Positions 5,788 through 51,981 of a DNA stretch of 64,000 bases are shown here, piece by piece. The DNA lies in the IMG/VR virus record IMGVR_UViG_3300035241_000016, positions 1-64,000 of that record. One strand, written 5' to 3'. The notes beneath the pieces are model-generated. The model did not search any database, was not told the DNA's origin, and saw only the letters and a program-made list of their open reading frames with translations. Within the stretch, counting starts at the first letter, position 1; each line of letters begins with the position of its first letter. Both the position numbers and the translations under genes were made by a program. Origin of the DNA: a virus (Duplodnaviria; Heunggongvirae; Uroviricota; Caudoviricetes).

Positions 5788-5988
5788 TCATGCTGGTCGT
5801 CTCCAACGTTCGACCTCTCGGCCGTTGATCGTCCGGGTGGTGGTGATGTAGGCCCACGGCTCCTTCCCACACCGATAGCAGCGGAACTTCGCAGCATAGG
5901 CCGGGAGCTTGGTCGGAACCTCGCGCCAGGCATGGCCGAATTCGCGGCAACGCCTACCCTTCGGGAACCGCAGCCTCCGAAGCCTCAT
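5788..5988 (-). CDS. small zinc-ribbon protein
   Basis: CREFGH...CYRCG; ATGA overlap with the terL stop. Confidence 0.45.
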   Translation of the reverse strand: MRLRRLRFPKGRRCREFGHAWREVPTKLPAYAAKFRCYRCGKEPWAYITTTRTINGREVERWRRPA

Positions 5989-7313: not shown

Positions 7314-7654
7314 TAGGCTTTGGTGCCACCATCGCGGAGCTCGATGAGTTCGTTCACTTGGGGTTCCTCCGCCGTACCATCGGACGGCTCCGCCGGGCGC
7401 TCCAATAGACACAGGGCAACGGCATTGGGGGCGTAGCGTCGGATGGCCTGCTCACACCGCTCGGCTGACGCGAGTAGCATGTGGAATGCTCGCGTGGTCT
7501 CGTGGTCGTTCACCGTGCGGACCATGTCTAGGTCACGGATCAGTGACACCAATCCACAGGCCGCGTGCAGAACGTTCTCCCGCCGCACGTTCTGTATGGC
7601 GCGAAGCTCGTCGTGGTTGACCACTACCTGAAGCGCCGGCCCCTCAGTGGCCAT
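7313..7654 (-). CDS. hypothetical protein directly upstream of terL
   Basis: 113 aa, coupled to terL (TAATG). No recognisable TerS motifs. Confidence 0.4.
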   Translation of the reverse strand: MATEGPALQVVVNHDELRAIQNVRRENVLHAACGLVSLIRDLDMVRTVNDHETTRAFHMLLASAERCEQAIRRYAPNAVALCLLERPAEPSDGTAEEPQVNELIELRDGGTKA

Positions 7655-25573: not shown

Positions 25574-26554
25574 TCAGGCCGCCACCGCCGGGAATTCTTC
25601 CCGCACCCGGCCGTCTAGTTCGGGGTGCTTGGCGGGCCGTAGACCACTAGATTGCTTGTAGAAGAAGGGGATCCCCCAGATGTGGCAGTCGTGGCTAATC
25701 TGCCGCGCCCACTCCTCGCTCATCGGCCTGTAGCCAGGGCCGGACTCCCCACCGACGACTACCCAGTCGAGACCACCGAGCTCCCCTGGGTTGAGGAAAC
25801 TTCTCATGAACCGTCCGAAGTTCAGCGGCCCCAGGAGCGGCTCCCCGCTCACCCAACGCACCGCGGCCCTGGTCTGCGCGACGTAGTTGAAGCGCCACAG
25901 GTAGTCCTGGGACTCGATCGTCGTGCCGCACCAGACGTGGGGCAGCACCGGCGAAGCCAGCGCCGTCAGGGTCGCCTGGTAGTGCTCCGGCAACCGCTCG
26001 GCAATGTTGTTGACGCCGGTGTCGAGCATTCCCGGCAGCAGCAGATCGATGGCCGCGCGCTTCAGCCTCTGAGTGTCGAGCCCGTTGATGTAGTCGCGCA
26101 TCCGTTTCGGGCGCTTCGTGAGCAGTTGGAACGTGTGGTGCGGCGCCAGCGCCATCATGCCGAAGACCTTGTCGAGCCAAGCATCCGGAACCCAATCGCC
26201 GAACAGATCCGTCATTGAGCAGACGAAGATGCGCCGCGGCCGCGTCCAGTGCAGCGGCTGCAGGAGTGTCGGCTCATGCAACTGCAGCGGCTCCTTACCG
26301 GCGTAGACCGCGCCAGCCAGGCTGACCGTCTGCAGCCCCTCGGTGGTGTATGGGTGCCCGCCGTGGTTCACGTGCAGCGTCGAGGCGTAGCAGTTGTCGC
26401 ACGCTGGCGAGACCTTCTCACACCCCCACAGGACCATGTTTCGCGTGACGACTTTCCCGTCACCCGCGGTGGTCGTGTACTCAGTGCCCGGCCGCGCTGA
26501 GCGGATCGGGTTCAGCGTGGCATCGGTCCACGCAATGCCGCTTCTATCGCCCAT
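25574..26554 (-). CDS. phage Gp37/Gp68 family protein (DUF5131)
   Basis: MGDRSGIAWTDATLNP...WGCEKVSPACDNCYA...WTRPRRIFVCSMTDLFGDWVPDAWLDKVFGMMALAPHHTFQLLTKRPKRM matches the family signature. Confidence 0.75.
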   Translation of the reverse strand: MGDRSGIAWTDATLNPIRSARPGTEYTTTAGDGKVVTRNMVLWGCEKVSPACDNCYASTLHVNHGGHPYTTEGLQTVSLAGAVYAGKEPLQLHEPTLLQPLHWTRPRRIFVCSMTDLFGDWVPDAWLDKVFGMMALAPHHTFQLLTKRPKRMRDYINGLDTQRLKRAAIDLLLPGMLDTGVNNIAERLPEHYQATLTALASPVLPHVWCGTTIESQDYLWRFNYVAQTRAAVRWVSGEPLLGPLNFGRFMRSFLNPGELGGLDWVVVGGESGPGYRPMSEEWARQISHDCHIWGIPFFYKQSSGLRPAKHPELDGRVREEFPAVAA

Positions 26555-27639: not shown

Positions 27640-27712
27640 ACCGTAATGTTTGGGGGCTCTCCCCCTTATAGGGGGAGCCCTCCATTACGCACGAAATATT
27701 CCGAAAGGTATT
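27640..27712. repeat. cruciform-capable palindrome CGTAATG...CATTACG flanking a GC hairpin, plus CGTAAT half-sites, immediately 3' of the helicase gene
   Basis: ccaccgtaatgtttgggggctctcccccttatagggggagccctccattacgcacgaaatattccgaaaggtattacgc; same motif family as 1170..1440. Confidence 0.6.
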
Positions 27713-28991
27713 ACGCACTCTGCACCAGTCCCCAGCGGTCCCCCAACTTCTGGAACCGTTTGCTCTGATTGAGCGTGGCCCGCACCTTGTCCGGACGCTC
27801 GTCCAGCTCGTCCGAAATCTCCCGGACGGTCAGAGAGCCGTGTCGTAGCACGTGCTCGATCCGCATCGTTAGACCGCCGGCCTGAACCAAGGTGGAAGAG
27901 GCTCGAACGTCCTCTGAATGGAGTAGAACGGCAGGCTCGGCCTCGTCCGAAAACCAGTTGGCTCGGATGCCAATAGGTGGCAGTTTCGCGCCGCGATTGC
28001 TCTTGTGGTTGAACAGCCCGATGTGCGCTTCGGAGCTGCCGTCCTCCTGATCCTTGCGGACCTCCCAGGCTTGCCGACACAGGTTCTCCTTGTAAATCGA
28101 GCCGTAAGCCCTTGGGTGTGCGCCTTTGCTGTTCAACCCCTCTTTGCTTATGTGATCGATGCATAAGGGCGTGGCCTCTAGGTAGCCCATCGCCTCGAAT
28201 AACGACAGCGTTGATTCTTCCGGCCCGCCTCGCTCCGACCCTAGACCAGCAGCTAGCCCAACGGAGTCGATAACGTAGAACCCAATCCCGAGCTCAGCAA
28301 ACTCGTTCGCGATGTGATTGGTCTGGTTCTTCAACGGGCCGTTGCGTTTGCAGGACCGCCAGTAGAACTTCGGCCGGTCGATGCCCATGCCGCGACAGAT
28401 GATGGAAATGCGGTAGATCATCTCGTCGTGGTCGTCTTCCCAATCGAGGTAGGCCACATTCGCCTGCCGCACGCGCATGCCCAGGAACTCCCTGCCGGTG
28501 GCCACGCACACAGCGATCGCGGTGGCTATCAAGCCCTTGCAGCTGCCGCCCTCGCCGTACAACCAGGTCGCTGCCCGCCAGGGAACAATGCGCTCCACGT
28601 GGTCAGGCTCGCGCGGCTTCTCCGCCACCTCGGATAGGTCAACGAAGGGCGTCCCCTCGCGCTCGCGGCGCATCACGCCCACGCAAAACTGCTCGACCAG
28701 ATCCCGCCAAGGCACGTTGTCAGCGCGTTCCTGCAAGGCTCGGGCGAGTGTTGTCCGGGCAGTGAGCGAGGAGAAGTTTTGCGTCGCCTCATGGAGGTGC
28801 GGCGGCGTCCCGGGCATGGTGGTTTCCACGGTCAGCACGCCGTGCAATTCCTCACCGCGCCGCTTGAGGAAGTCCGCTCGCATCCGCACCTGCTGTCCCG
28901 GCGGCTCGTAGACGTAGCCGAGCCCTTCACGGCGGAACGCCTCCACGCGCGGCGCGTCCACTGGATCAGGAAAGGCAAGCACTTCCCCCAA
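27711..28991 (-). CDS. replicative RecA-fold helicase/primase-associated ATPase (AAA_25/DnaB-C-like) with C-terminal wHTH
   Basis: GEGGSCKGLIATAIAVCVATG (P-loop, atypical K-G), YLDWEDDHDE (Walker B), C-terminal wHTH LTMRIEHVLRHGSLTVREISDELD; TTG start. Confidence 0.6.
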   Translation of the reverse strand: MGEVLAFPDPVDAPRVEAFRREGLGYVYEPPGQQVRMRADFLKRRGEELHGVLTVETTMPGTPPHLHEATQNFSSLTARTTLARALQERADNVPWRDLVEQFCVGVMRREREGTPFVDLSEVAEKPREPDHVERIVPWRAATWLYGEGGSCKGLIATAIAVCVATGREFLGMRVRQANVAYLDWEDDHDEMIYRISIICRGMGIDRPKFYWRSCKRNGPLKNQTNHIANEFAELGIGFYVIDSVGLAAGLGSERGGPEESTLSLFEAMGYLEATPLCIDHISKEGLNSKGAHPRAYGSIYKENLCRQAWEVRKDQEDGSSEAHIGLFNHKSNRGAKLPPIGIRANWFSDEAEPAVLLHSEDVRASSTLVQAGGLTMRIEHVLRHGSLTVREISDELDERPDKVRATLNQSKRFQKLGDRWGLVQSA

Positions 28992-29392: not shown

Positions 29393-30592
29393 TCATGCCT
29401 CAGACTCCAAGCCCAGCAGCAGGTGCTGCACAGATCCGTTCTCCATCACCTGCGGCAGCAGGACATCGCCGCGGACTTCCGTGCCGTCCCACCCGTTCGG
29501 CCAGGTGTTGGCATCTATCAGCTCGAGGATCCGGGCGTGCTCGGCTGGGTCGATCAGGGTTACCTGCGGCCGTTCGGCAGCCGCCGCACTGATCTCGTCC
29601 TGGATGGCCAGCACGGTCGCGAGGCCAGCCCGCCGGGCGTCCATCGTAAGGGGGCCCATACGCATCGGGTTCAGTGGGATTGAGCCATCCTTGAGGCGCT
29701 GATCGCCTGCCTTGCGCAGCCGGCTATGCGCCTTGGTCAGCTCGGCGTACAGCGGTCGGAGGCGTCGCAGTGGCTCCAGGTAGCGCCAGTGCTCCAGGCC
29801 GAGCAGCATCTCCAGCGCGGTGTCGCGGCTCGCCAGATTGCAGCCCACGCAACCCGTGCGGGCGTTGATTTCCTCGGCCTCATCACCGCCGTAGGCCTCG
29901 GCCACCATCTGCGTCGGGAAGCCCATCCCGGGCGCTTCGAACATCAGCCAGTCCCACACGTGGCAGACGCGCCAATGCAGCAGCGGCGCCAACGTGTCGG
30001 CCACGGCGGTTGGCGTCGCCTCCTGAAACCAGCCCTGGCCGCACTCAGCGCCATCGCGGCTACAGGAAACGGCGATCCGCTGGTCGCGCGCGGCGCTCTC
30101 GCCCAGCCGGACGCCGGTCAGCGCCAACAGCTTCTGGCCGACCTGGTCGCGCAGTCCCTGGAGCGCCGCCATCATCGGCTCGATCTTCAGTTGCGGCGTG
30201 CACCACCGGAAATGGTTCTTGGGCGGGGGCACGCCCCGGCCGAACATGTAGACGAAGAAGCGCTCATCGAGCGGTGGCTTGACGACCTCGGCCCGGTAGC
30301 CGCGCTGGCGCAGCTCGTCAAGGACCCGGAGCGCGGCCACGTTCAGCGGGGGCAACTCCATGCCTGTGTCGGCGTACATGATGGACAGCGACGCAGGCCG
30401 TGGCACAGCGCCCGTTTCGATGAGGTGGATCACGACAGTCACCGTGGCGGTTGAGTCCTTGCCGCCCGAGTAGGCGATAGACCAATGCGGATAGCGCTCG
30501 CCGTAAGCCCGCAGGGACTCGGCCGTCAGTTCGACGCTCTCCTGCATCGTCAGGCGCTCAGCTTCGAACAGGCTCACTCGGCGCACTGTCAT
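29393..30592 (-). CDS. PAPS reductase-family PP-loop ATP pyrophosphatase (DndC/SspD-like)
   Basis: PP-loop WSIAYSGGKDSTATVTVV; 399 aa; C-terminal Cys pair GCVGCN. Confidence 0.7.
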   Translation of the reverse strand: MTVRRVSLFEAERLTMQESVELTAESLRAYGERYPHWSIAYSGGKDSTATVTVVIHLIETGAVPRPASLSIMYADTGMELPPLNVAALRVLDELRQRGYRAEVVKPPLDERFFVYMFGRGVPPPKNHFRWCTPQLKIEPMMAALQGLRDQVGQKLLALTGVRLGESAARDQRIAVSCSRDGAECGQGWFQEATPTAVADTLAPLLHWRVCHVWDWLMFEAPGMGFPTQMVAEAYGGDEAEEINARTGCVGCNLASRDTALEMLLGLEHWRYLEPLRRLRPLYAELTKAHSRLRKAGDQRLKDGSIPLNPMRMGPLTMDARRAGLATVLAIQDEISAAAAERPQVTLIDPAEHARILELIDANTWPNGWDGTEVRGDVLLPQVMENGSVQHLLLGLESEA

Positions 30593-30795
30593 GCAGCCAC
30601 CATCCAGGACCGGTCCTTCTCCTCGCGCCTACGCAGCGCCTCGTGGTTCCGCCGGTCCTCGGCCCAAAGCCACAGAACCGCCAGCGAGCTAGCCGTCACC
30701 AGAAACGTCACCAGCACCAAGTCGATGAGACCCCCGAGCGGGAGATGGACAGGGGTCTGGAGCCCGGCCATGATGGCGTCGATCACGCAGTCCAC
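30589..30795 (-). CDS. small membrane protein
   Basis: TM LIDLVLVTFLVTASSLAVLWLWA; ATGA overlap. Confidence 0.45.
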   Translation of the reverse strand: MDCVIDAIMAGLQTPVHLPLGGLIDLVLVTFLVTASSLAVLWLWAEDRRNHEALRRREEKDRSWMVAA

Positions 30796-30827
30796 CTACG
30801 CCGACTCCAACACCATGTTCGCGCTCA

Positions 30828-31118
30828 TCACGCTGGCATGGCCCCAAAGAGGCTGGCGCTCGTCGCATAGAAGTGGCAGCCCGCCAAGCAATCGGCGCAG
30901 ATGTCCTGTGGCGTCGGCTCCATGCAGTCACACGCGGGGCAGCCGCAGGCGTCGGGGTTAGGATCATTCGGGCCGTGAACATTCGACCGGCCCGCTGCTG
31001 GCACATCTGGCTGTGCGAGGTATGTTTCCGCCGGCCGGCCGTCACCCTCTGCCCTGACCACCCGGCCCAAGTCCTCTGCCAGCGGTGCTACCGAGGCCAT
31101 CTCCTCACCTACGGTCAC
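30828..31118 (-). CDS. hypothetical Cys-rich protein
   Basis: ...DACGCPACDCMEPTPQDICADCLAGCHFY; weak. Confidence 0.25.
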   Translation of the reverse strand: MTVGEEMASVAPLAEDLGRVVRAEGDGRPAETYLAQPDVPAAGRSNVHGPNDPNPDACGCPACDCMEPTPQDICADCLAGCHFYATSASLFGAMPA

Positions 31119-31239
31119 CGGGAGGACTCCGGCGAAGCGCCTACGTCGGCGGGCCGATCAACCCAAGCACGGGACAACACCACAGCGCCCGCGAGAGCCT
31201 GAACAACCAGCCACATCGGCACGGCGGCGCAGGATGGAA

Positions 31240-32385
31240 TCACGACGCCACCTCCTCATGCGGTTCCACTCGCTTGAGCGCGTGAAGAGGCAGCGTGTAG
31301 GTGACGCGCGCGCCGCGGGTGAGCCGCTTCTGCCGCTTGAATTCGACTCGCGCCACCCAGCAGGGCTCGCTGTGGGCGAACCTGGTCTCCGTCCAGGGCT
31401 TGCTGCCCTCGGGCCAGTCCTCGAGATCCTCGACCAGACGAATCTTGCCCTTGTACTCCTCCGCCGGCTTGGCCATGCGGTTGAGCGTCCAGTACACCAG
31501 GTGAACGACACCGACGCGGCCCTTGACGTACTGGCGGCCGGGGACGTCGGCGATACAGTGCACCAGGTCTCCAGGCCGAATATGGGTGGGCTTCTCGCGC
31601 GGCTCCGTCAGATAGGCGCTCCGGCGTTGCTTGTTGCGAGAGCGGTCGAGGAAGGCGACCTGATGGACTTTGTAGGGGCTGCCGACGCGCCAATCCTGGC
31701 CCTGCAGGAGCGCGACCAGCCGCTTGGTAAGCGATCGGCGGACGGCTTGCTCGAGCTCCGCCGGCGGATGCTCCCAATCGATCTCTTCGACCACCAACAG
31801 GTCGGCGGGGTCGATGTAGAAGACCTTGGTGCCTTTGAGGTAGGGCAGCTCGCCGCGGGCCATGTACTTCCGGAGGCGGTAGTCGTGGATCCCGGCGACG
31901 CGCGCGACGCGATTGGTTGTCCATCCATGGCGCTCCCACGTGTTGAGCCCGAGGTCGTAGATCCGCCGGTGGATGGCGTCCGGGGTGCGTTTGAGCTCGG
32001 CCGCGATCTCCTGGCGGGTCAGGATGCCGATGGCCTCCTGGATGAACCAGTCCTCGAGGTCCGAGTACTCCTCATGACTCTTGTTGACGTCGATACCGAC
32101 TGCGGTCCAGGCCGCGCGCATGCTGCCAAAGTAGTTGCCGATGGTGGCGAAGCTCGGGAACTCGCCACGGTTGACGTTGGGCCGCGGCCGCCGGCGCCTC
32201 GTCCGGCGATTCCATTCCCCAGTGCTCAGTGGGGTCTCGTTGTGCAGGGCGTAGAACCGCCGCATGGCTTCAAGCACGCGAGTCCGCGTCCAGTAGGTCC
32301 GTGATGGCAGCTTGGCCTTGGTCCGGATCGCCGGCAGAACTGGGTGCGGCTCCGGGAATATGGGCATGGTGCTGACGACTTTCAT
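31240..32385 (-). CDS. HTH-domain protein (sigma-region-4-like and second HTH, SH3/KOW-like C-terminus)
   Basis: Start MKVVSTMPIF in ATGA overlap with the ParB stop; LTRQEIAAELKRTPDAIHRRIYDLGL; VARVAGIHDYRLRKYMARGELPY. Confidence 0.5.
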   Translation of the reverse strand: MKVVSTMPIFPEPHPVLPAIRTKAKLPSRTYWTRTRVLEAMRRFYALHNETPLSTGEWNRRTRRRRPRPNVNRGEFPSFATIGNYFGSMRAAWTAVGIDVNKSHEEYSDLEDWFIQEAIGILTRQEIAAELKRTPDAIHRRIYDLGLNTWERHGWTTNRVARVAGIHDYRLRKYMARGELPYLKGTKVFYIDPADLLVVEEIDWEHPPAELEQAVRRSLTKRLVALLQGQDWRVGSPYKVHQVAFLDRSRNKQRRSAYLTEPREKPTHIRPGDLVHCIADVPGRQYVKGRVGVVHLVYWTLNRMAKPAEEYKGKIRLVEDLEDWPEGSKPWTETRFAHSEPCWVARVEFKRQKRLTRGARVTYTLPLHALKRVEPHEEVAS

Positions 32386-33230
32386 GCGGCGATCGCCGCC
32401 AGCCGGGCCATGTACTCCGCCAAAGGACACGCGGAGCAGATCGACGGCTCCGATTCCATGCCACAGGCGCAGCAGGTCGCCTTGAACACGTCGGCGAGCT
32501 GGCTAAACGCGATCGTGCGATCACCCTCCGCCTCGAGGCGTTCGAGAGCATTGCGCCGGCACTCACTCAAACCTTGTGGCTCGGCGTCCTGGTCGTCGTC
32601 CGGCGGCCGGCGTGGCGGGCTGCTAACGACACCCTGAGCACGGTCGATGACTCGCCGCAGCTCCAGGACGGTGATCTGTTTACGAGCGGCTATCGCTGCC
32701 AGTCGGCGCTGGTGGGCCGGATCCTTGACGTCGACCAGGACGTCAGCCAGGGTGACCGGCAGCTCGCCGCGGTGAAAGCGCTCTTGCACTTCGGGATCCA
32801 GTTTCAGCAGTACCAGCCGACTGTGGACGCGGTTGTGCGGGACACCAAGCCGGCGCGCTGTGTCGGCCTGAGTCCAGCCGGTGCGTTCGATGAGCGCACG
32901 GAAGGCCTGAGCCTCCTGCAGGGGCGTCAGGTCCTCGCGCTGGATGTTCTCGACCAGCATGATTTCCTGCTGCTCGGTCTCGGTCAGGTGCTTCACGATG
33001 ACAGGGACCTCGCGCTCCTTGGCGAGCGTCGCCGCAGCGTGCCGGCGGTGGCCGGCGACGATGGTGCCCTCGGGCGTGATGAGAAGCGGCTGCAGGACGC
33101 CTTTCTGGCGGATCGAGTCGGCCATCTCCTGGATGCCGGGTGCGGCCGGATCTACGGGCCCGCGTGGGTTGAGCGGATTGGGCTTCAGCGTGTCGGTCGG
33201 CCTGCGATCGCCTGGGGTCACGCGCTCCAC
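32382..33230 (-). CDS. ParB-like nuclease domain (ParB/Srx fold) protein
   Basis: LKPNPLNPRGPVDP...SIRQKGVLQPLLITPEGTIVAGHRRHAAATLAKEREVPVIV is the ParBc signature; C-terminal Cys cluster. Confidence 0.7.
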   Translation of the reverse strand: MERVTPGDRRPTDTLKPNPLNPRGPVDPAAPGIQEMADSIRQKGVLQPLLITPEGTIVAGHRRHAAATLAKEREVPVIVKHLTETEQQEIMLVENIQREDLTPLQEAQAFRALIERTGWTQADTARRLGVPHNRVHSRLVLLKLDPEVQERFHRGELPVTLADVLVDVKDPAHQRRLAAIAARKQITVLELRRVIDRAQGVVSSPPRRPPDDDQDAEPQGLSECRRNALERLEAEGDRTIAFSQLADVFKATCCACGMESEPSICSACPLAEYMARLAAIAA

Positions 33231-33815
33231 CTATGCCGCCTCCAACAGCCGGGCCTGCAGCGGACGGCCCAGGCGATCGCAGGCCTCAAACTGCTGCCCG
33301 GGCGTGCGCTCGAGGCCGGGCCGGAAGATCACGACGCCTGCAGGGAAGGTGGCCGGGCCCGACTTGGCGCCGTCCCTTCCTATCTGTATGTAGGACAGGC
33401 GCCCACGGATCAGCCGCACACGGTCAGCGAAGGGCATGACGTACTCGTGCCAGATGGCGGTATCCGACAGGACCTTGCAGACCATCACCACCAGCGCGCC
33501 GGCCCTCGCCGATTGGCAGGCCTTTGGGACGAGCTGGTGGATGAGCGAGAACGGGGGGTTCAGGAACCCTCGCTCCTGTCCCCAATCCGCGGCGAGCGCG
33601 TCCTCGACGATGCCACCGGGGCCGAACCAGCGTGGCAGCTTGTGGTTGGCTGGCGCCAGGATCTCGTACTCCTGGTCCTGCTCCCGGATGCGCGTCAGAT
33701 GTTCGTGCGATGCGGCGAGATCGATGGTGAAGTCGAACTCCCTGTGTAACGACGCGAACAGGTCGTCCGGGGTCCCGTACAGGTCAGTCTTTGGGGTCGC
33801 GATCGTGCCGGCCAC
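33231..33815 (-). CDS. phage Dam-type DNA N6-adenine methyltransferase
   Basis: LYGTPDDLFASLHREFDFTIDLAAS...FLNPPFS (NPPF motif IV) ...VVMVCKVLSDTAIWHEY...IRGRLSYI matches phage Dam (PF05869-like). Confidence 0.75.
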   Translation of the reverse strand: MAGTIATPKTDLYGTPDDLFASLHREFDFTIDLAASHEHLTRIREQDQEYEILAPANHKLPRWFGPGGIVEDALAADWGQERGFLNPPFSLIHQLVPKACQSARAGALVVMVCKVLSDTAIWHEYVMPFADRVRLIRGRLSYIQIGRDGAKSGPATFPAGVVIFRPGLERTPGQQFEACDRLGRPLQARLLEAA

Positions 33816-33997
33816 TTAGGCGCCCACCAGCAACCGCCGAGCGGCCACGCAAATCCAGCAAGGGGCAATTTCCCCCGCTCCATGGAGGGCGCGATCAACG
33901 CGCAGCCAGGGGCCCAGTTCCATGGAGAATGGGCCGCCGGCCGCCCATCGCAGCCATTCGCCAGGCGAAACCGCCGCTAAGTGCGCGTCCAACGGGC

Positions 33998-34477
33998 TCA
34001 CGAGCAAGCCTTCATCAGGTCACCGAGCGGACCTCGGACGTAAGTCTTGAAGTGGACGAACTGACCTTTGTGCCAGAAGCCCCACTCGCGCTGCGTTGGA
34101 CCGACGAGCACCAAGGTCCAACAGTCCTCCTGGCCGTCGCGCACCGCGAACCCACGCTCATCCCGCAGCCGCCAGAACATCGTGATTCGGTGCCGATGCG
34201 ACGATGGGAACGTCCGCAACCAGGGAGCTGCGTAGGTCCGTTCGCCTTCGTCTGAGCGCTCGAGATAGCGACCCTTCAGGCCGACCGTTACGAACCGCTT
34301 CGGATGGTCGTGCAGGTCGAAACTCCAGTCGTCGCCAACGAAGTGGTGGAGGTAGATCTTGACGGGCCCGACATGGCCGATGACCCATCTGTATAGATAG
34401 GTAGAACAGCGCTCGGCGCCGTTGATTTCCTCAGCAGTTCCAAACAGCCGATCGAGGACCGCATGGGCAAAGTTCAA
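33998..34477 (-). CDS. cupin-like His-rich protein (TTG start, TTGA overlap)
   Basis: IYLHHFVGDDWSFDLHDHPKRFVTVGLKG...SSHRHRI; possible metal-binding cupin fold (inference). Confidence 0.4.
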   Translation of the reverse strand: MNFAHAVLDRLFGTAEEINGAERCSTYLYRWVIGHVGPVKIYLHHFVGDDWSFDLHDHPKRFVTVGLKGRYLERSDEGERTYAAPWLRTFPSSHRHRITMFWRLRDERGFAVRDGQEDCWTLVLVGPTQREWGFWHKGQFVHFKTYVRGPLGDLMKACS

Positions 34478-34893
34478 GGCACCACCTCCACAAGCTCGAA
34501 GCGGATCACCCACATCTGGGCGTCGGAGTGGCGCCAGTGGTCGAAGGCGCCCAGGCTGAAGTCCTCGCGGCCGACCTTCTGGCCCCACAGCGTCTTCGGT
34601 AGGTGCTCAGGGTGCTCGTACAGATAGCCGAAGCCCTCGGCCTCGTAGTCGCTGTCGGGCATGGCCGAGATCGGCTCTTTCGTGACAGACACCAGGCGGA
34701 TGGTGGCCACCTTGCGGCCGATAGGCTTACCGGTGTTCCGGTCGACGACGCGCGGACTCTTGTCCCAGGCGTCGACCAGCATCGGCACCTGGCGGGCTAT
34801 GCGCTGAGCGTAGGAGTCGGTCCAATCGCGGCGAGTCACCGTTTTCATGCCGGCCAACAAAGCCGGAGTTGTGTGAGCGAACGAGATGATCAC
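34474..34893 (-). CDS. ASCH (PUA-like) domain protein
   Basis: GTG start; IISFAHTTPALLAGMKTVTRRDW fits the ASCH N-terminal signature. Confidence 0.55.
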   Translation of the reverse strand: MIISFAHTTPALLAGMKTVTRRDWTDSYAQRIARQVPMLVDAWDKSPRVVDRNTGKPIGRKVATIRLVSVTKEPISAMPDSDYEAEGFGYLYEHPEHLPKTLWGQKVGREDFSLGAFDHWRHSDAQMWVIRFELVEVVP

Positions 34894-35417
34894 GCCGACA
34901 CCACCGATAGGGTTGTGGGCGCGTCCAGGCCAGCCCTGGCGCCGAGCGCTCGGCTGTGATGCGTGCACTGGGGGTGACGGTCGTCCGCGCATACGCCGAA
35001 ACTGCAACAGGGGCCGATCACCGCATCGCGTGCCCACCAATCGCTCGGGCTGGGAGCGCCGCACAACACGCAGCAGGTGGCCGCGGGATCGTCGTAGCCG
35101 GAGGCCTCCAGCGCACCGATCAGATCGCGTCCGCGACCCAGGCCAATTGCCGCCCAATGGCGCCAACAGTGCAGCGGGCGCCGCGGACGATCCAGCAGCC
35201 ATAGGTAGAGCTGCACCACTGCCATTGCCTCGGTGCCGCCCATTCCCAGGCTGGCCGGTCTCGCGGTGGGATAGGTACCACCGCCGCGGCGGTCTTGCTG
35301 CAACTGCTTGCGGGCAACGGGGGTAACGATGAACAGTCGGCGGCCGTCCTGCTCGAAGCGATAGGCAGGGTTGATCGCAGCCAGCACGGTGTTCACGTCA
35401 GCCAAGGTGGGGCTCAT
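34890..35417 (-). CDS. hypothetical protein
   Basis: Start MSPTLADV in ATGA overlap; Cys pairs. Confidence 0.4.
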   Translation of the reverse strand: MSPTLADVNTVLAAINPAYRFEQDGRRLFIVTPVARKQLQQDRRGGGTYPTARPASLGMGGTEAMAVVQLYLWLLDRPRRPLHCWRHWAAIGLGRGRDLIGALEASGYDDPAATCCVLCGAPSPSDWWARDAVIGPCCSFGVCADDRHPQCTHHSRALGARAGLDAPTTLSVVSA

Positions 35418-35860
35418 ACGACCGCCCTCATCAACTCGCCCACGGCCTCGAAGTGCCACACGCCGAGCTGGTCCTTGTGCGAGCGGCAGTCCGGACTCAG
35501 GAACAGCGCCATGCTGAACGCGTGATGTGCAATCAGCGGAGCGGATTCGCTATCGAGCTCGCGCCAGCCCTTCCGAGCGGCCAGGAATGGGCACTGCTGC
35601 ATAGCCAGCCGGCCGCAGTCCTCGTGCATCCATGGGTCGGCGAAGCACTGCCTGTGTGCGCTGTCGGGTGCGCCAATGAAGGCGATGGGGCCAGACCGAA
35701 TCTTGCCGTCGCAGACTCCGCAGCGCCGATGCTTCGCGCAGCGGTCAACATGCTCCGGATCGACCGCCTTGAAGTCAACGGGGTGCCGGCGCGCGTCGAC
35801 CATGTAGGGGATGGTCAGCTTGCCCTTGACTGGTCGTTCGTCGAGGCGTGCGCGGCTCAC
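35414..35860 (-). CDS. hypothetical protein
   Basis: 148 aa; HRRCGVCDG...; coupled on both sides. Confidence 0.4.
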   Translation of the reverse strand: MSRARLDERPVKGKLTIPYMVDARRHPVDFKAVDPEHVDRCAKHRRCGVCDGKIRSGPIAFIGAPDSAHRQCFADPWMHEDCGRLAMQQCPFLAARKGWRELDSESAPLIAHHAFSMALFLSPDCRSHKDQLGVWHFEAVGELMRAVV

Positions 35861-36384
35861 GCTCCCACTCCTGCAGCCCGGTACACCTCACGCGGCGTGT
35901 CATAGCCGAGCCGACTTGGATGCCGAGGGCTGCCCGACCCTGTTCGACCCAGGCACCAAAGCTCGATCCCACTGAGCAGCCGAAGCACATCCCGCGGTCG
36001 CCAGTCCCCGGGGCCGGAGTCGCCCCAGGCGACGAGCACGGCCGCGGCGCTCTGCGCCTCAACCCGCAGCCAGTGATCGTTGTCGGGCCCGATCGGATCC
36101 ACGACGGCACGCAGGGCCTTGGGGTCCGTCGACCTCCAGGCAAAGATGTTCGTGACGACAACGCCGTCGTAGCCCCACAGCCGAGCCCATTTCTGCAGCT
36201 TGTGGACGGTCGGGTCGTCGCTCGTCTCGTCAGCGGTGCTGGGATTGAGCGCGATGACATTGAGGCGCCGCGGGTTCGTCTCGTCAGTGAAGTCACGGAA
36301 CAGGCTGTACCGCCACCGGCGGCAGCTGGAGAACAGCGCCCAGCACCGGACGCCATCCGGGCGGACTGTGACGGTAGGGGTCAC
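35857..36384 (-). CDS. DUF1643 domain protein
   Basis: RLNVIALNPSTADETSDDPT...GYDGVVVTNIFAWRSTDPKAL...VAWG matches DUF1643; GTGA overlap with the C5-MTase. Confidence 0.6.
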   Translation of the reverse strand: MTPTVTVRPDGVRCWALFSSCRRWRYSLFRDFTDETNPRRLNVIALNPSTADETSDDPTVHKLQKWARLWGYDGVVVTNIFAWRSTDPKALRAVVDPIGPDNDHWLRVEAQSAAAVLVAWGDSGPGDWRPRDVLRLLSGIELWCLGRTGSGSPRHPSRLGYDTPREVYRAAGVGA

Positions 36385-38153
36385 GCGACGGCCTCGGTCG
36401 ATTCGTCGGTTAGCACTGGTAGGTCGTCGAGCATCGCCTCGAAGAGTGCCCGGGCTGTTTCCAGAGGGACGCTGTTCCCGATCTGCTTGGTGATGTCGGC
36501 CTGCGTGCCCACGAACTTGTAGTCGGGTGGGAAACTGTGGGCGCCGGCCAGTTCAGGTAGGGGCTTGAGCATGCGGTAGCCGATGTCCCCAACGACCACC
36601 ACGAACGTGATCCCGTCGGTGGTCACGAAGCCGAGCCGTCGCGGATCGACGTCTAGGCCTTCGGTCCAGGTTCGGAGCTCGGCGGTAGCGACGGCAATGT
36701 TGTTGCGGATCGTCAGGGTAGGCAGCGGGTCGGCGCTGGAACGGTTGACTCCGTCGTCCTCGCGGCTCGTGTTGGCGACCGTGATGAGCAACGGAGTAAC
36801 CAGGTTGTGATGGCATTCCGTCGTGACAGTTGGCATTGGGTCGTCGATTCCGTGAGTCCGCGGGTGTTGACCTTCACGCTCCTGCAGACGCGGCGTGATA
36901 AACGGCGTGGCGACTGCTAGGCGGTCTTTGGTCATGACGGTCGGCAACGGCTCTTTCGCTGACCGGGCCTCGGCGGTTGGGCCGTAGGGCACGACCTGAG
37001 GAGTAGCGATGGCATGGTGAATGCCGCCGGCGCTGATGGCCCCGATCGGCTCCGTCAGCGGCTTGGCCGTCGACCGTATCTGATAGCCTTTTGTCCCGCG
37101 CAGCGTCACCAGGACGGGGCTGGCAAGTCCGAAGCGGTCACGGACGAAGATGAACGGCTCGAGCGCTTCGGCGCCGTCCTCGGCAACGATGACGAACGGC
37201 TCGCCTGGCTTCCAATCTGTTCCGCACTCCGCGATGTAGCGGTTTTTGGCGGCCTGTGGAATGTCCAGCATGTTGATGTACCAAGGGCCATAGTTCCCCC
37301 AGTACAGTCGCGCGCCGCGGGCAACACGCATCTGGGTGTTGACCGACAGCCGAACCGTGCCATCGGCTTTGTAGATGCTCGGTCCGCGATCGTTCAGATC
37401 CAGCACTTCGGCGGCTGCCCGATAGGGCTTGAGATTCCCGAACATGGTCCGCCGGCCGGCATTCCTCGGGGCATGGGTGGCCATCGGCCAGCGCAGCGGA
37501 CGTCCATCCTTGCGAGCGATGAGGAAAAACCGTCGACGGGTGGTCGGGTCGCCGTAATCCGCGCACGTCAGGACCTTCCAATCGACGTCATAGCCACAGT
37601 CGATGAGGCTCTGACGCCACGCCTGAAAGAAGACGCCTTTACGAGTGGGGTCCGGTCGCTCACCGTCCATCTTCGCGCACTTGGCGATGGACTGGTTATG
37701 GCGCTGGCAATGAGTGTCATGGCCGCGAGTCGGGACGCAGTCTTTGGCGTACAGCATCGGGCCCCAGTCGACGAACTCGGGAACGTTTTCGACGATGAAC
37801 CGGTCAACGTCTAGGTCGGTCAGCCAGCGGTTGATGAGCCAGGGGCTGACACGGAGTTGGTCGGACATGGGCTTCCGGCCGCGGGCTCTGCTGTGGTAGG
37901 TGCACTCGGGACTTGCCCACCCGATGTCGACGTGGCCTCCCCGAATCAACTCGATCGGCTTGACGTCCTCGAGATTGCGGCAGAGGCCCGGGCCGATGTT
38001 CCGCTCGTAGGTCGCGATGGCTACTTTCCAGTGATTCACAGCCGTGATGTGAATGTCATAGCCACGGGCTCGAAGCGCCTGGCGCATGGCTTCGCTTACA
38101 ACGCCCGTCCCGCAGAACAGGTCGAAGCCTTCCAGGGTCTTCGTCGAGCTCAA
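36381..38153 (-). CDS. DNA cytosine-5 methyltransferase (atypical P-E-C catalytic motif)
   Basis: Motif I FCGTGV, motif IV ASPECTY (PEC instead of PCQ), motif VI ENVPEF, motif X GNSVP; 590 aa. Confidence 0.7.
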   Translation of the reverse strand: MSSTKTLEGFDLFCGTGVVSEAMRQALRARGYDIHITAVNHWKVAIATYERNIGPGLCRNLEDVKPIELIRGGHVDIGWASPECTYHSRARGRKPMSDQLRVSPWLINRWLTDLDVDRFIVENVPEFVDWGPMLYAKDCVPTRGHDTHCQRHNQSIAKCAKMDGERPDPTRKGVFFQAWRQSLIDCGYDVDWKVLTCADYGDPTTRRRFFLIARKDGRPLRWPMATHAPRNAGRRTMFGNLKPYRAAAEVLDLNDRGPSIYKADGTVRLSVNTQMRVARGARLYWGNYGPWYINMLDIPQAAKNRYIAECGTDWKPGEPFVIVAEDGAEALEPFIFVRDRFGLASPVLVTLRGTKGYQIRSTAKPLTEPIGAISAGGIHHAIATPQVVPYGPTAEARSAKEPLPTVMTKDRLAVATPFITPRLQEREGQHPRTHGIDDPMPTVTTECHHNLVTPLLITVANTSREDDGVNRSSADPLPTLTIRNNIAVATAELRTWTEGLDVDPRRLGFVTTDGITFVVVVGDIGYRMLKPLPELAGAHSFPPDYKFVGTQADITKQIGNSVPLETARALFEAMLDDLPVLTDESTEAVA

Positions 38154-39478: not shown

Positions 39479-39976
39479 GACCGCCGCTCGCTGCGCATCG
39501 GTCAGTGCCCGGCGTTCCCGGCCCACTCGGACCGGCTTGGCGGACGACAGTCCGCACTGGCACGGGTAATAGCCGCAAGCCTCGCAGAATGTTGGGAGTT
39601 CCGGCCGCACCATCTTCGCGATGGCGTCTTCGATGGTTGGATGGCGTCGTGCGAACGACCCCACGCGGTCCTCGCGCGGATGGAAGTACACCTTCAGGTA
39701 GCGGAAGTTGCAGGGCACGATTTCCACGCGGATGCAGAAGTCGTGTGCCCCAACGACCAAGCGCATCAACAGGCTCCCGTCGTAGCTCGATAGATCCGTG
39801 GTCAGGTTGAGCGCGACGTAGAAGCTGGACCAGTCCGCCGCCAGAACCGCGTGCTCTTGGTGGTAGATGCCGTCGAAGAGCCATTCGCAGAAGCGGGCTA
39901 CGCGCTCGCCCTCGGCACTCAATTCCTTACCGCGCCGGCGGAGCCATTGCGGGCCGAAATTCAGGTCCCGTGGCAT
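39476..39976 (-). CDS. hypothetical protein
   Basis: Start MPRDLNFGPQWLRRRGKELSAEGERVARFCEWLFDG... Confidence 0.45.
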   Translation of the reverse strand: MPRDLNFGPQWLRRRGKELSAEGERVARFCEWLFDGIYHQEHAVLAADWSSFYVALNLTTDLSSYDGSLLMRLVVGAHDFCIRVEIVPCNFRYLKVYFHPREDRVGSFARRHPTIEDAIAKMVRPELPTFCEACGYYPCQCGLSSAKPVRVGRERRALTDAQRAAV

Positions 39977-40521
39977 CAGACCGATGCCTCCTGCGCCGGC
40001 TGGAACAGCGCCAACTGCTGGAATCGCTGCAGGTCCCAACTCCAGAGGCCATGCGTCTGGACGACGTACGCGAATTCCTCGATGTCGTGACCGACGATGA
40101 CCCAGCGCACCTCGCCGTCGTCAGTCAGGGTCTGGCTGATGTGCAGCATCTCGTGCAGCAGCAGCGGCTCAACCTGCTCGCGTGTGAACTGCGACTGGCG
40201 GCAGTTGTCGGCGGCCAGCCAGATGACGAAGTCCGCCTTCGAGTAGTGCGCCAGCAGACCGGACGGCTTCTGACACTGGCCGAACCGCGTCTTCCCCTTG
40301 ACGTTGCCGCCCTGCCGCTTCCAGAGGTAGTGGATGGTGATCTGCGTCAGTACGGACAAGCGGGCATGCTTCTCGATTAGGTCGTCGGCCATTTGCGTCA
40401 GATCTGGCGCGGGCAGGAAATCAACCTCTTCTCCGAAGTCGCCGGTAAACGCGCTGAGCGTCGGAACGGGGTACAGAGCGGACATCTTCGCGGCCCTCAG
40501 GTGCTCACCGAGTACGGTCAC
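39976..40521 (-). CDS. putative Zn-metalloprotease (HExxH; SprT-like)
   Basis: LLLHEMLH zinc-binding motif, preceded by KGKTRFGQCQKPSG...ADFVIWLAADNC. Confidence 0.5.
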   Translation of the reverse strand: MTVLGEHLRAAKMSALYPVPTLSAFTGDFGEEVDFLPAPDLTQMADDLIEKHARLSVLTQITIHYLWKRQGGNVKGKTRFGQCQKPSGLLAHYSKADFVIWLAADNCRQSQFTREQVEPLLLHEMLHISQTLTDDGEVRWVIVGHDIEEFAYVVQTHGLWSWDLQRFQQLALFQPAQEASV

Positions 40522-41909
40522 GTCTGGGCCACCAATCCTGTCGCCATCGCCTCGGGCTCGTCACCCAGCGTCCAGGCCACAGCCTCGCGCGCGTTCCGCA
40601 CGGCCGGCGGCACGCGCAGCCAGTAATCCTTGAAGGAGCCATCCGGCTCTGGCGTGCTGTTGGTGACCTGCACCATCAGGAGATCCTCGTCGCCGGGCAG
40701 CGGTGCTCGCCACAGCGTGCCCCAGTCGTCGGTGCTTACCTTCTCGGCGTTGCACAGCCTGAGGTAGTTCTCCATGCCGAACCGATCGAGCATGATGCGC
40801 CGGATTTCCACGTTGACCTCATCGCGGATCTGCTCCATCGTCAGGGTGTTGGGTGCTTCGACCACCTGTCGGGGTACACGGACGCCGTGAATGGCCCACA
40901 CGCCCCAACCGTCGGGCCAGACCACAGCCGGCCCGTCGTCACAGTGGAGGCGGTGCGAGCCCCAGCCGCGCGGGCGGGACTCGTCGACCAGTTCGCGATG
41001 AATGACCAGCGGACGCTCGCTGACCATGACGAAGTCGCGGTGGGCGTACCACCAGCAGGCGGACTCCATCGTGGCCTCGTAGGCCCGCGCACGGTCCCAC
41101 AGATCACCTAGTAGCTCAAGGTGGCAGACCTCGCGGAAGAAGGATGTCCAGGCTCCGCCATACCACCAGCCGCCCACCCAGAATTGGCCACCGATGATGC
41201 CCCGGTACCAAGATGATCCGATGACCTGCCGGACCGCGTCATCGACCGCGTCATCGACCGCGCCACCGACCGCGTCACGGACCGCGTCATCGACCGCGCC
41301 ACCGACCGCGTCACGGACCGCGCCACGGACCGCGCCACCGACCGCGCCACCGACCGCGTCATCGACCGCGCCACGGACCGCGCCACCGACCGCGTCATCG
41401 ACCGCGCCACCGACCGCGCCACCGACCGCGTCATCGACCGCGCCACGGACCGCGCCACCGACCGCGTCATCGACCGCGCCACGGACCGCGCCACGGACCG
41501 CGCCACGGACCGCGCCACCGACCGCGCCACCGACCGCGTCATCGACCGCGCCACGGACCGCGCCACCGACCGCGCCACCGACCGCGTCACCGACCGCGTC
41601 ACGGACCGCGCCACGGACCGCGCCACCGACCGCGTCATCGACCGCGTCATCGCGTCGCCCTCCTTTCAGTCGGGCAAGGACGTATGACGCCGTGGGGGCC
41701 GCCAGGGCAACCACCAGCGGCGAACTGGTCCAGACAATGACCTTCGGTGGCTGCAGGCCGGCGTAGCGATAGCACTCACGCACGGCCGCCTCAAAGCGAG
41801 GCCTGTCCGCTGGGCCGGTGCGCAGTCCGATTTCGATCCACTTGTCGGCCCACTCCTCGAAGCGGGCCTCTTGCTCCGGTGTCAGCCGGGCGATCTTCTT
41901 AGCCATCAA
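40518..41909 (-). CDS. protein with ~110 consecutive tetrapeptide repeats (D/G/R)-A-V-(G/D/R)
   Basis: Conserved N-terminus MAKKIARLTPEQEARFEEWADKWIEIGLRTGPADRP... and Trp-rich C-terminus; central DAVGGAVRGAVRDAVG... encoded by the 12-bp tandem repeat. Confidence 0.6.
   Translation of the reverse strand: MMAKKIARLTPEQEARFEEWADKWIEIGLRTGPADRPRFEAAVRECYRYAGLQPPKVIVWTSSPLVVALAAPTASYVLARLKGGRRDDAVDDAVGGAVRGAVRDAVGDAVGGAVGGAVRGAVDDAVGGAVGGAVRGAVRGAVRGAVDDAVGGAVRGAVDDAVGGAVGGAVDDAVGGAVRGAVDDAVGGAVGGAVRGAVRDAVGGAVDDAVRDAVGGAVDDAVDDAVRQVIGSSWYRGIIGGQFWVGGWWYGGAWTSFFREVCHLELLGDLWDRARAYEATMESACWWYAHRDFVMVSERPLVIHRELVDESRPRGWGSHRLHCDDGPAVVWPDGWGVWAIHGVRVPRQVVEAPNTLTMEQIRDEVNVEIRRIMLDRFGMENYLRLCNAEKVSTDDWGTLWRAPLPGDEDLLMVQVTNSTPEPDGSFKDYWLRVPPAVRNAREAVAWTLGDEPEAMATGLVAQT
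41228..41652. repeat. 12-bp tandem repeat (gaccgcg[tc]ca[ct][cg]) x ~36, coding
   Basis: Visible directly; period 12, four unit variants interleaved. Confidence 0.8.
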
Positions 41910-51156: not shown

Positions 51157-51981
51157 TCACGCCGCACGCTCCGGATACGGCAGTACGGGCAGCCCGACCG
51201 TGATGTAGCGGCGGCGCTGCCTGCTGGTGAACACGTACCGATGATTGCCCGGGTGGACCAACTCCCGAACGCCAGCCGTCGCCATAGCCTCCCGGAGCCA
51301 GGCGCGCGCATCTTCGCCGGCCAGCATCGGGCGAGCGCCGAAACTGACGAGGATCCCCTCGGCATAGGCTCGCCCACAATCCCGGCTAAGGATCTTGGCG
51401 ATGCTTCGCTCGCTGAACACGCGACCATCCGGGAGAATGCGCAGTGTGCGCGGTCGGGATCGTCCACAGTAGCGGGCCGAGCTCGCCTTGTAGATGTGGC
51501 CGATGTGCCCAGGGAACACGATCTGTCCCTCCACGGTCGTTCGGGGCAGCGGGTCCGAGAAGGCAACCAGGCCGTGGATATGCTCGCGAGCTGCGAGCTC
51601 CAGGACGCGGGCGATCATCCACGTTTCCGCGGGGGCCGGGACGTCGTCCAGCAGCACGAACCTGCCGAGCTCGGCAAGCTCATCAAGGGGCTGTCCAGGG
51701 AAAGCGCTGCTGAGCGTGGCCGGGTTCGTGGGCACAGAGAGGACCGCGGCGCCCTGTAGTTCGCCGCCGCGATACAGGCCAAGGCAGCGACGCGCGGCAG
51801 GAAAGCTGCCGCTGTAGTGCTGCTGCACGACGAACGGCCGCGCCTCTGACTCCACGCAGAGCTCAACAGAGTAATGGCGACAGTTGAAACCACCTTCGCT
51901 GACGTGTCGCCAGGAGTGCTGGTGGCCGCGCCAGCGCTGGCACCACTCGAGGCCTAGAGGCAACTGGGCCGCGACCTTCAC
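51157..51981 (-). CDS. hypothetical protein, possibly a GNAT-fold modification enzyme (Mom-like?)
   Basis: 274 aa; conserved-looking blocks LGLYRGGELQGAAVLS, GRFVLLDDVP, HGLVAFSDP...GHIGHIYKASSARYCG; family assignment tentative. Confidence 0.4.
   Translation of the reverse strand: MKVAAQLPLGLEWCQRWRGHQHSWRHVSEGGFNCRHYSVELCVESEARPFVVQQHYSGSFPAARRCLGLYRGGELQGAAVLSVPTNPATLSSAFPGQPLDELAELGRFVLLDDVPAPAETWMIARVLELAAREHIHGLVAFSDPLPRTTVEGQIVFPGHIGHIYKASSARYCGRSRPRTLRILPDGRVFSERSIAKILSRDCGRAYAEGILVSFGARPMLAGEDARAWLREAMATAGVRELVHPGNHRYVFTSRQRRRYITVGLPVLPYPERAA

Follow-up and report, generated by a model that had tools for sequence, protein, structure and literature searches.

An orphan DndC-like gene in a probable phage anti-restriction/methylase island

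Does a chain of tightly coupled phage genes, in which two DNA methyltransferases stand beside a ParB-like protein and a PP-loop protein of the PAPS-reductase superfamily, encode one pathway of DNA hypermodification? This question is raised by positions 29,393 to 38,153 of a 64,000-nucleotide stretch of viral DNA (IMG/VR record IMGVR_UViG_3300035241_000016, positions 1 to 64,000; in the following, the window), for which a first-pass annotation had proposed such a multi-step pathway. We found that the underlying observation is largely real and that the DndC-like assignment of the PP-loop protein was right. The pathway interpretation of the operon is not supported. The region is of a known type, a phage anti-restriction/methylase island with an orphan PAPS-reductase/DndC-like gene. 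As best explanation we propose, with a confidence slightly above even, a mosaic anti-restriction island in which the orphan DndC-like enzyme would act in phosphorothioation (PT)-related counter-defence. Within this proposal, the mosaic island is held much more confidently than the PT-specific role.

The window as a whole has a G+C content of 65%, and its coding is almost wholly on the minus strand. It is phage or prophage DNA, because genes for TerL (5985-7412) and a large serine recombinase (20797-22434) are present. A megablast of its 27-39 kb region against 50,697 phage records gave no match.

The short DndC-like PP-loop protein

The protein on which the question turns is encoded by the following gene:

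29393..30592, minus strand: short DndC-like PP-loop ATP-pyrophosphatase, 399 amino acids (PAPS_reduct PF01507, 1.5e-8; phrog_12882, 4.9e-158)

Profile searches bear out the tie to DndC that had been suggested for this protein. The NCBIfam DndC model (TIGR03183) matched residues 35-353 at an E-value of 4.1e-32, with 111.6 bits against a cutoff of 290.4. Among the PADLOC models, DndC (2.2e-34) was followed by BrxP (3e-16) and SspD (6e-9), and the DndC model gave 117 bits for the window's protein versus ~650 bits for bona fide cyanobacterial DndC. No CysH or APS-reductase model was found among its NCBIfam matches at E ≤ 0.01. The link to PT is drawn from this order of profile matches, DndC before BrxP before SspD with none to CysH, and from the Dnd loci described below. 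As judged from these matches, the protein is on the DndC/DNA side of the PAPS-reductase superfamily and not on its sulfate-assimilation side, and the phrog_12882 family to which it belongs is by the same measure a shorter sister family of DndC, below the DndC cutoff. A place in a sulfate-assimilation clade, which the annotation had named as a finding that would refute its proposal, is thus not borne out. The phrog_12882 family is labelled 'PAPS reductase' and counts >5,000 proteins at E ≤ 1e-10.

Across 36-46 homologues, SGGKDS (residues 42-47) and six cysteines are invariant: C131 (within FRWCT), C177, C184 (within ECGQGW), C210, C248 and C251. The earlier description of SGGKDS plus a C-terminal cysteine pair therefore stands for the first element; the pair is a mid-protein CxxC (C248/C251, R-T-G-C-x-x-C) and one part of the set of six. 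SGGKDS, C131 in FRWCT and C248/C251 align with long DndC. The sole ECG motif is internal (residues 183-185), 14 residues past the G-R-ES-R motif. In CysH, the catalytic ECGLH motif sits in the C-terminal tail. Because the PP-loop and the six invariant cysteines, including RWCT and CxxC, are kept, the protein looks like a working ATP- and Fe-S/thiol-dependent enzyme and not like a decoy.

An AF2 model of the protein (pLDDT 80.6) was compared to the PDB with Foldseek and returned generic PP-loop folds only, at TM ~0.3 (APS/PAPS reductases, GMP synthase, TtuA and TilS). Searching the PDB with the single sequence gave no match, the family profile hit only the PAPS domains of FAD synthases at E ~1e-3, and no solved DndC structure for comparison was identified in the PDB searches.

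An exact-sequence look-up of the protein gave no record. An identical protein is present on a JGI metagenome contig, where it is annotated 'DndC', and the closest cellular homologues (63-70% identity) stem from Ktedonobacterales and Pyrinomonadaceae metagenome-assembled genomes. Related genes were found by tblastn (E ≤ 1e-5) in Pseudomonas, Rhizobium, Microcystis and Thermus phages as well as in soil metagenome viruses, and it is these rather than the previously named actinophages in which the gene recurred. Phage homologues of PAPS reductase have repeatedly been called unexplained (PMC11437467) and have been read by others as metabolic genes (bioRxiv 10.64898/2026.02.18.706556).

Gene neighbourhoods and mosaic structure of the island

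We collected 83 phage or viral-contig loci with homologues 45-68% identical to the PAPS-like protein and searched up to 10 kb on each side of the gene. A C5 cytosine DNA methyltransferase (C5-MTase) was found in 36 of the 83 loci and a DUF5131 gene in 26. ParB was seen in six, Dam in three, DUF1643 in one, the cupin in at most one and ASCH in none of them. The remaining open reading frames (ORFs) of the window's chain had homologues in none of the 83 loci, save for the 34890..35417 gene in one locus. ParB and PAPS reductase, which had been thought to form a recurring pair, thus come together in 6/83 loci.

A Pfam census of 121 immediate-neighbour ORFs was headed by C5 methylases (9), N6_N4 methylases (7), DUF5131 (5), D12 (3) and Dam (3); replication genes and integrases ranked next, and ParB domains had 1-2 members. 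DnaB or primase genes of ordinary type lie near the PAPS-like gene in its relatives. When the two nearest genes on either flank were clustered all against all, no obligate or hidden small partner emerged, the largest neighbour cluster being the C5-MTase with 14 loci.

The two closest relatives of the PAPS-like gene (86% and 84% identity) lack the whole 30.6-39.3 kb block. In their loci, L084 and L085, PhageMetallopep runs almost directly into the PAPS-like gene. The window carries DUF6745 and then PhageMetallopep at 39976-41909 (minus strand), syntenic with L085; L084 keeps PhageMetallopep, and its contig ends just upstream of it. DUF6745/PhageMetallopep marks the upstream edge of a ~9-kb lineage-specific insert. 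Because the genes of the chain rarely co-occur and the closest relatives lack the block, the region is, on these comparisons, a mosaic made up of three or more pieces that travel independently. The small Cys-rich ORFs, like DUF1643 and the cupin, are predicted to be unlinked passengers in it.

We also examined 80 cellular loci with homologues 56-70% identical to the PP-loop protein. Searches by phmmer with cyanobacterial queries found DndE in 37, DndD in 34 and long DndC in 17 of these 80 loci; the long DndC scores 650 bits on the PADLOC DndC model. TIGR04096, a 'DNA phosphorothioation-associated putative methyltransferase', is encoded in 44 of the 80 loci (839 bits). In a conserved layout, TIGR04096 is divergent from the short DndC gene, which in turn is convergent with dndE, dndD and dndC. 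This layout occurs in Cyanobacteria, Acidobacteriota and Chloroflexota (L219, 7793-18130; L232, L238, L192, L195, L173-L175; and ~40 others), and its short DndC paralogues are 56-64% identical to the window's protein. A literature search returned no description of the TIGR04096/short-DndC/dndEDC layout and nothing informative on TIGR04096. In a neighbour-joining (NJ) tree, all Dnd-linked copies group in a single subclade that branches from within the phage and prophage sequences.

The presence of two different DNA methyltransferases in the window's operon, of Dam and of C5 type, was confirmed. Together with the DUF5131 gene, these are:

36381..38153, minus strand: orphan C5 cytosine DNA methyltransferase, 590 amino acids (Pfam DNA_methylase PF00145, 9.5e-24)
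33231..33815, minus strand: phage Dam-type N6-adenine DNA methyltransferase with NPPF (Pfam Dam PF05869, 8.2e-16; 58.6 bits, cutoff 28.1)
25574..26554, minus strand: DUF5131 (phage Gp37/Gp68) protein (Pfam DUF5131, 4.4e-65; PADLOC PDC-M41B, 2.5e-53)

The family profile of the C5-MTase matches M.HhaI, M.HaeIII and DNMT1 in the PDB at ~1e-27. Its motifs are all present, namely DLFCGTG (I), SPEC (IV), ENV (VI), RRR (VIII) and GNSV (X), and most motif residues are invariant among 19 relatives (P82, C84, E122-N123-V124, R206/R208 and G559-N560). The first-pass annotation had called this enzyme 'atypical'. Motif IV is the variant SPEC (SPxC..HS), with one extra residue between P and C, and an SPxC motif IV is found in 24 of the 37 methylases near PAPS-like genes. 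The extra length of the enzyme lies in its variable region (residues ~365-500), which consists of four tandem units of ~33 residues at positions 368, 401, 438 and 475, with the consensus S-[VI]-D-[DE]-P-[LM]-P-T-[VI]-T ... L-[VA]-x-P-F-[LI]-V. Relatives contain up to ten such units (L011, L010, L017, L009, L057, L012), and the last unit sits where ordinary C5-methylases have their single target-recognition segment, before motif IX. Most likely, the units represent several target-recognition domains of a multispecific enzyme methylating several sequence contexts, which, if true, would provide broad protection against host restriction. In one relative, an 860-residue C5-methylase (L059, 8883-11465), similarity to the family breaks off immediately behind the catalytic Cys (SPEC-FPAGSLVLTKTG...); this insertion after the motif IV Cys looks like an intein at the active site.

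Sixteen of 37 C5-MTase ORFs lie ≤600 bp from the PAPS-like gene; 5000 simulated trials gave 3.6 on average and never more than 11. The two genes directly adjoin each other in phages Dobby, RR1-A and phiC725A, whose examined neighbourhoods contain no ParB annotation. For a search in the opposite direction, 79 new loci anchored on the C5-MTase family were found with an alignment query; a single-sequence scan gave none. DUF5131 is a frequent companion of phage methylase regions and is present in 18 of these 79 loci. The DUF5131 protein of the window also matches PDC-M30B strongly and is weakly similar to radical-SAM mobile pair protein A.

The Dam-type protein matches phrog_111 (1e-30) and the PADLOC orphan MTase model (2.4e-17) and stays below the TIGR01712 equivalog cutoff (47.9 vs 97). 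In three related viral contigs, a Dam-type gene lies 101 bp downstream of the PAPS-like gene (L031, 5677-6129; L032, 3295-3954; L034, 5829-6488).

A further piece of the island comprises three genes:

32382..33230, minus strand: ParB/Spo0J/Noc-type protein (ParB_N, 1.7e-16; HTH_ParB, 1.3e-17)
34474..34893, minus strand: ASCH-like protein, ~139 amino acids (Pfam ASCH, 6.2e-4; phrog_11705, 1.1e-31; start moved to GTG 34893)
31240..32385, minus strand: HTH-containing protein, ~381 amino acids (weak HTH_17 and AbiEi_4 matches only)

The first of these had been likened to DndB/DpdB, and here the profiles point to a partition-type protein instead, an outcome that the annotation itself had counted among those refuting its proposal. 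It exceeds the cutoff of TIGR00180 (parB_part; 109.6 bits vs 58.45), matches noc at 6.3e-38 (130.6 bits, below the Noc cutoff of 315) and has further NCBIfam matches to PRTRC ParB and RepB. Its PDB matches are Spo0J, Noc and ParB structures at 1e-20 to 4e-35, with Thermus Spo0J at 4.3e-35. The N-terminal CTPase-type domain carries the GHRR CTP-motif, and residues ~250-275 (window 32382-32600, minus strand) hold the cysteine cluster CCACG...CSACP (CCxC...CxxC). No PADLOC match to DndB was obtained for this protein; its sole PADLOC match was to the ParB_N part of an MTase_II model (1.6e-8). ParA-like families were not among the best 25 of 34 families in the Pfam census of the window, and no systematic search for ParA or parS was made.

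The sole close relative of the ParB-like protein that we found (L246, 8269-13288; 48% identity) retains the C-terminal cysteine segment. There, an ASCH homologue (49% identity) adjoins the ParB homologue, and a homologue of the HTH protein (47% identity) lies 1.8 kb from it. The same neighbourhood contains no PAPS-like, Dam, C5-MTase, DUF1643 or cupin gene. This arrangement suggests that the ParB/Noc-like, ASCH and HTH genes may be a small module of their own, whose movement is not tied to that of the methylases or the PAPS-like gene. The ASCH match itself is marginal (20.9 bits vs a cutoff of 21.2) and covers the C-terminal ~140 residues of the originally listed ORF, and GTG at 34893 is likely the true start.

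Further genes of the operon are:

27711..28991, minus strand: AAA_25 (RecA/DnaB-like) ATPase (Pfam AAA_25, 1.5e-16; phrog_906 'DNA polymerase/primase', 3e-9)
35857..36384, minus strand: DUF1643 protein (Pfam DUF1643, 2.3e-36; phrog_3230, 3.2e-44)
35414..35860, minus strand: Cys/His-rich protein, 148 amino acids (no Pfam or PHROG match)
34890..35417, minus strand: Cys-rich protein, 175 amino acids (no Pfam match; start moved to ATG 35417)
33998..34477, minus strand: cupin-like protein, ~159 amino acids, with an HHF..D..HDHP motif (phrog_4786 'cysteine dioxygenase', 6e-26)

Most of the original domain calls hold (PAPS_reduct, ParB, Dam with NPPF, C5, DUF1643 and AAA_25); that of ASCH is marginal, and that of the cupin comes from the PHROG match, as sequence searches of Pfam, NCBIfam and the PDB gave nothing. 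The AAA_25 ATPase is probably the replicative helicase. It was also considered as a DndD/SspC/BrxC-type NTPase and rejected as such, with no PADLOC match and no similarity to cyanobacterial DndD. The DUF1643 gene overlaps the C5-MTase stop codon by 4 nucleotides; its product has no significant sequence relatives in the PDB (best E-values 0.4-0.58), and a weak DUF1643 homologue is found in one of the 79 C5-MTase-anchored loci. A homologue of the Cys/His-rich protein is absent from every fetched locus with PAPS-like or C5-MTase genes.

Every ORF listed in the first-pass annotation was found at its coordinates on the minus strand, with four start codons revised (34893, 34477, 35417 and 32385); the ATG at 35417 gives the Cys-rich protein gene a 4-nucleotide overlap with its upstream gene. 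The description of about 20 genes chained by 4-nucleotide overlaps is right as to a tight, co-expressed unit and too generous in its figures. With the revised starts, the chain from the C5-MTase to the AAA_25 gene comprises ~16 genes, 10 of whose 15 junctions are 4-nucleotide overlaps, the other 5 being gaps of 0-32 nucleotides. A scan for internal promoter-like and terminator-like sites gave counts below the expectation from a shuffled control. The unit is very probably co-transcribed. Such tight packing is usual in phage early operons and in phage genomes, so that it argues for co-transcription and not for shared function or chemistry.

Explanations for the island

In the explanation that we favour, the region would be an accessory part of a phage early/replication operon whose genes were acquired independently. 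Several of these genes would protect phage DNA from host restriction, and three of them, encoding the C5-MTase, Dam and the DndC-like protein, would have a role in DNA modification. The two methylases, both motif-intact orphans, would pre-empt methyl-sensitive restriction. The DndC-like enzyme would act on the PT axis of defence. It might sulfur-mark phage DNA by drawing on the cysteine desulfurase of the host and perhaps also on its DndD/E, or else disturb PT-based restriction or PT-dependent discrimination. For this explanation speak the phage context, the mosaic make-up of the block, the clustering of the PAPS-like gene with methylases in phages, the DndC-like profile matches and the sister clade beside dndCDE, and the invariant catalytic residues. 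There is also a precedent: gene p0018 of Vibrio phage P5a_red, in which a PAPS domain is fused to Dam, was shown to let the phage escape the Dnd system of its host (Piel et al., bioRxiv 10.1101/2021.05.05.442762; Nat Microbiol 2022) and is cited as a Dnd-escape gene in PMC13551039.

Several observations weigh against this explanation. In the NJ tree, the window's protein falls among the phage and prophage copies, and its Dnd association is thus indirect. No DndD, DndE or long DndC was found by phmmer with the cyanobacterial queries in the window or in 162 viral loci, and all four established PT systems need a PAPS-domain protein together with a dedicated NTPase (PMC12914056). Since a full-length DndC is already present in Dnd loci, the short paralogue may act otherwise than in PT insertion. 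The Vibrio fusion differs in architecture, and no Vibrio phage was among the homologues recovered by tblastn at E ≤ 1e-5, so the likeness is at the level of domains only. Moreover, none of the 79 C5-MTase-anchored loci carries a PAPS-like gene, which makes the link to the methylase one-sided. By this reverse test, an obligate pair of C5-MTase and PAPS-like gene was rejected; a one-sided link is more readily understood if both genes belong to a common 'DNA-protection island'.

Rather unlikely, although not negligible, is that phrog_12882 represents a self-sufficient DNA sulfur-modifying enzyme that works without DndD/E or a dedicated NTPase. Such an enzyme would require only ATP and the host cysteine desulfurase to place a phosphorothioate or a thio-base on DNA. 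Phages would spread it as a portable anti-restriction mark, and cyanobacterial Dnd loci would have recruited a descendant clade, together with TIGR04096, for an accessory arm. If the enzyme can modify DNA alone, it would open a new minimal route to sulfur-modified DNA and define a new class of anti-defence genes; if it does not, the region would be an ordinary phage anti-restriction island.

We give a similarly low, marginally smaller probability to a two-component unit, in which the DndC-like enzyme and a partner of methyltransferase fold (the SPxC C5-MTase in phages, TIGR04096 in cyanobacteria) would introduce a non-methyl modification, the partner recognizing the target and flipping the base, and the PP-loop enzyme contributing ATP-driven activation or transfer of sulfur. 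The significant clustering of C5-MTases (16/37 at ≤600 bp), the unusual SPxC motif IV in 24 of 37 nearby methylases, the conserved divergent pair of TIGR04096 and short DndC and the PAPS-Dam fusion known from the Vibrio phage all speak for such a unit. However, the PAPS-like gene is missing from the C5-MTase-anchored loci (0/79), the methylases found next to it come from four or more unrelated classes, and many loci lack any methylase within 10 kb. In the window, 5.8 kb separate the two genes, and the C5-MTase keeps every catalytic motif of a methyltransferase.

It is very improbable that the DndC-like protein has no catalytic function and serves as a decoy, sequestering Dnd components of the host (IscS, DndD/E) and thereby disarming PT-based defence. 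The absence of the ~130-residue C-terminal extension of long DndC, the lack of partner genes in phages and the anti-defence context would suit a decoy. Yet the PP-loop and the six cysteines are strictly kept in homologues 50-85% identical, from phages of very different hosts, and members of the family are found, too, in phages and prophages whose hosts show no evidence of Dnd.

Very improbable, too, is the proposal with which we began, that the whole chain is one multi-step hypermodification pathway in which ParB and the PAPS-like protein act like DndB and DndC. In its favour, the genes run in one direction with translational coupling, the PAPS-like protein resembles DndC, and folds of ParB and PAPS type co-occur in Dnd and in YbdMN/IbrAB. 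Nevertheless, the proposed companions of the PAPS-like gene are rarely near its 83 homologues (ParB 6, Dam 3, DUF1643 1, cupin ≤1, ASCH 0), and the participation of ASCH, DUF1643, cupin and Dam in a common pathway also lacks a counterpart in the two closest relatives, from which the entire block is missing. The ParB-like protein is of Spo0J/Noc type with an HTH and not DndB, and its closest relative stands with ASCH and HTH genes and without a PAPS-like gene. There is also no meaningful similarity to YbdM or YbdN; membership in YbdMN/IbrAB was rejected, as BLASTP gave E-values of 0.004 against YbdN and 4e-4 against YbdM that reflect the PP-loop and ParB-N motifs only. The case is a warning that a pathway should not be read from translational coupling alone in phage genomes.

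If the phage does hypermodify its DNA, the best candidate lies outside the flagged operon, 13 kb away:

51160..51981, minus strand: Mom-family protein (Pfam PF25680 Mom, 1.3e-21; 77.6 bits, cutoff 27.1; profile positions 2-201 of 202)

This Mom homologue, a candidate gene for adenine N6 hypermodification, is 24% identical to phage Mu Mom (BLASTP, 1e-6); R111 is kept, whereas T stands in place of S124. Mu Mom uses Gly-tRNA to make 6-NcmdA, with R111 and S124 (Mu numbering) as catalytic residues (PMC13219725). As assigned by its profile, the Mom-family gene is the sole gene of the window whose family has been shown to hypermodify DNA. A class I SAM-dependent methyltransferase (59323-60000, plus strand; Methyltransf_11, E 7e-10) adjoins a beta-helix (tailspike-like) protein (58499-59305, minus strand) and would be the third methyltransferase-fold gene noted in the window.

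Least probable of all is that the gene serves metabolism, encoding a true PAPS/APS reductase with which the phage would raise sulfur assimilation in the infected host (an auxiliary metabolic gene): Pfam assigns PAPS_reduct, database names and some papers (bioRxiv 10.64898/2026.02.18.706556) treat phage homologues in this way and ECGQGW superficially recalls the ECGLH of CysH, but no CysH/APS-reductase NCBIfam model matches, the DndC models match best over ~320 residues, the ECG motif is positioned unlike the C-terminal tail of CysH, and the gene is flanked by DNA methylases, replication genes and Dnd genes and in no case by genes of sulfur assimilation. 'PAPS reductase' genes abound in phages and are routinely mislabelled as sulfur-metabolism genes. 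The short DndC paralogue with its intact catalytic motifs, the phage copies among orphan methylases and the sister clade beside dndCDE offer handles on them.

Comparison with known systems

In the Dnd system (DndA/IscS, DndC, DndD and DndE), the genes of the DndD ABC-ATPase and of DndE share an operon with the PAPS-domain gene; no DndD, DndE or DndA stands near the window's orphan PP-loop gene. Long DndC and the PP-loop protein are 26-29% identical over ~330 alignable residues and have SGGKDS, FRWCT, G-R-ES-R and R-x-G-C-x-x-C in common. With 399 residues versus ~530-550 for DndC, the window's protein lacks the ~130-residue C-terminal extension (LLDTERQ...), and it has the cysteines of SC...ECGQGW and HWRVC where DndC has DNEC...PSC.

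E. coli YbdM/YbdN and IbrB/IbrA combine the same two superfamilies in one operon, as does the window. IbrA/YbdN contains PAPS_reduct plus DUF3440 and adjoins a small ParB_N-only protein, whereas the window's PP-loop protein has no DUF3440. Unlike in YbdMN/IbrAB, the ParB and PAPS-like genes of the window are not adjacent (1.8 kb apart), and their pairing is not conserved (6/83). The ParB-like protein shares ParB_N/GHRR and HTH_ParB with chromosomal ParB/Spo0J and Noc, which are CTP-dependent DNA clamps, and has a Cys-rich C-terminal segment where chromosomal ParB has its dimerisation domain.

The C5-MTases of Bacillus phages SPR, phi3T and rho11s, studied by the Trautner laboratory, are reportedly multispecific. 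They are phage orphans like that of the window, with several consecutive units between motifs VIII and IX, each having a P-x-x-T-[VIL]-T core that resembles the single target-recognition domain of monospecific enzymes. The window's enzyme differs in its regular ~33-residue repeats and in having SPxC instead of PCQ as motif IV.

Closest to the DndC-like gene are the phrog_12882 genes annotated 'PAPS reductase/DndC' in Pseudomonas phages Dobby, phiC725A and D14A, Rhizobium phage RR1-A, Microcystis phage Mae-JY29 and Thermus phage Tsatsa. Their products are 52-55% identical to the PP-loop protein over 95-98% of its length (Tsatsa, 37%). Like the window's gene, they lie in an early/replication region beside DNA methylases; the other neighbours differ. 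Vibrio phage P5a_red and the window both associate a phage PAPS-superfamily domain with a PF05869 Dam, in a variable anti-defence region and in one operon, respectively. The Vibrio protein p0018 is a single fusion of 479 residues with an N-terminal PAPS domain only, whereas the window's two genes are separate and 2.6 kb apart. The unfused counterpart of this anti-Dnd fusion is seen in the three viral contigs L031, L032 and L034, in which Dam and the PAPS-like gene form a pair.

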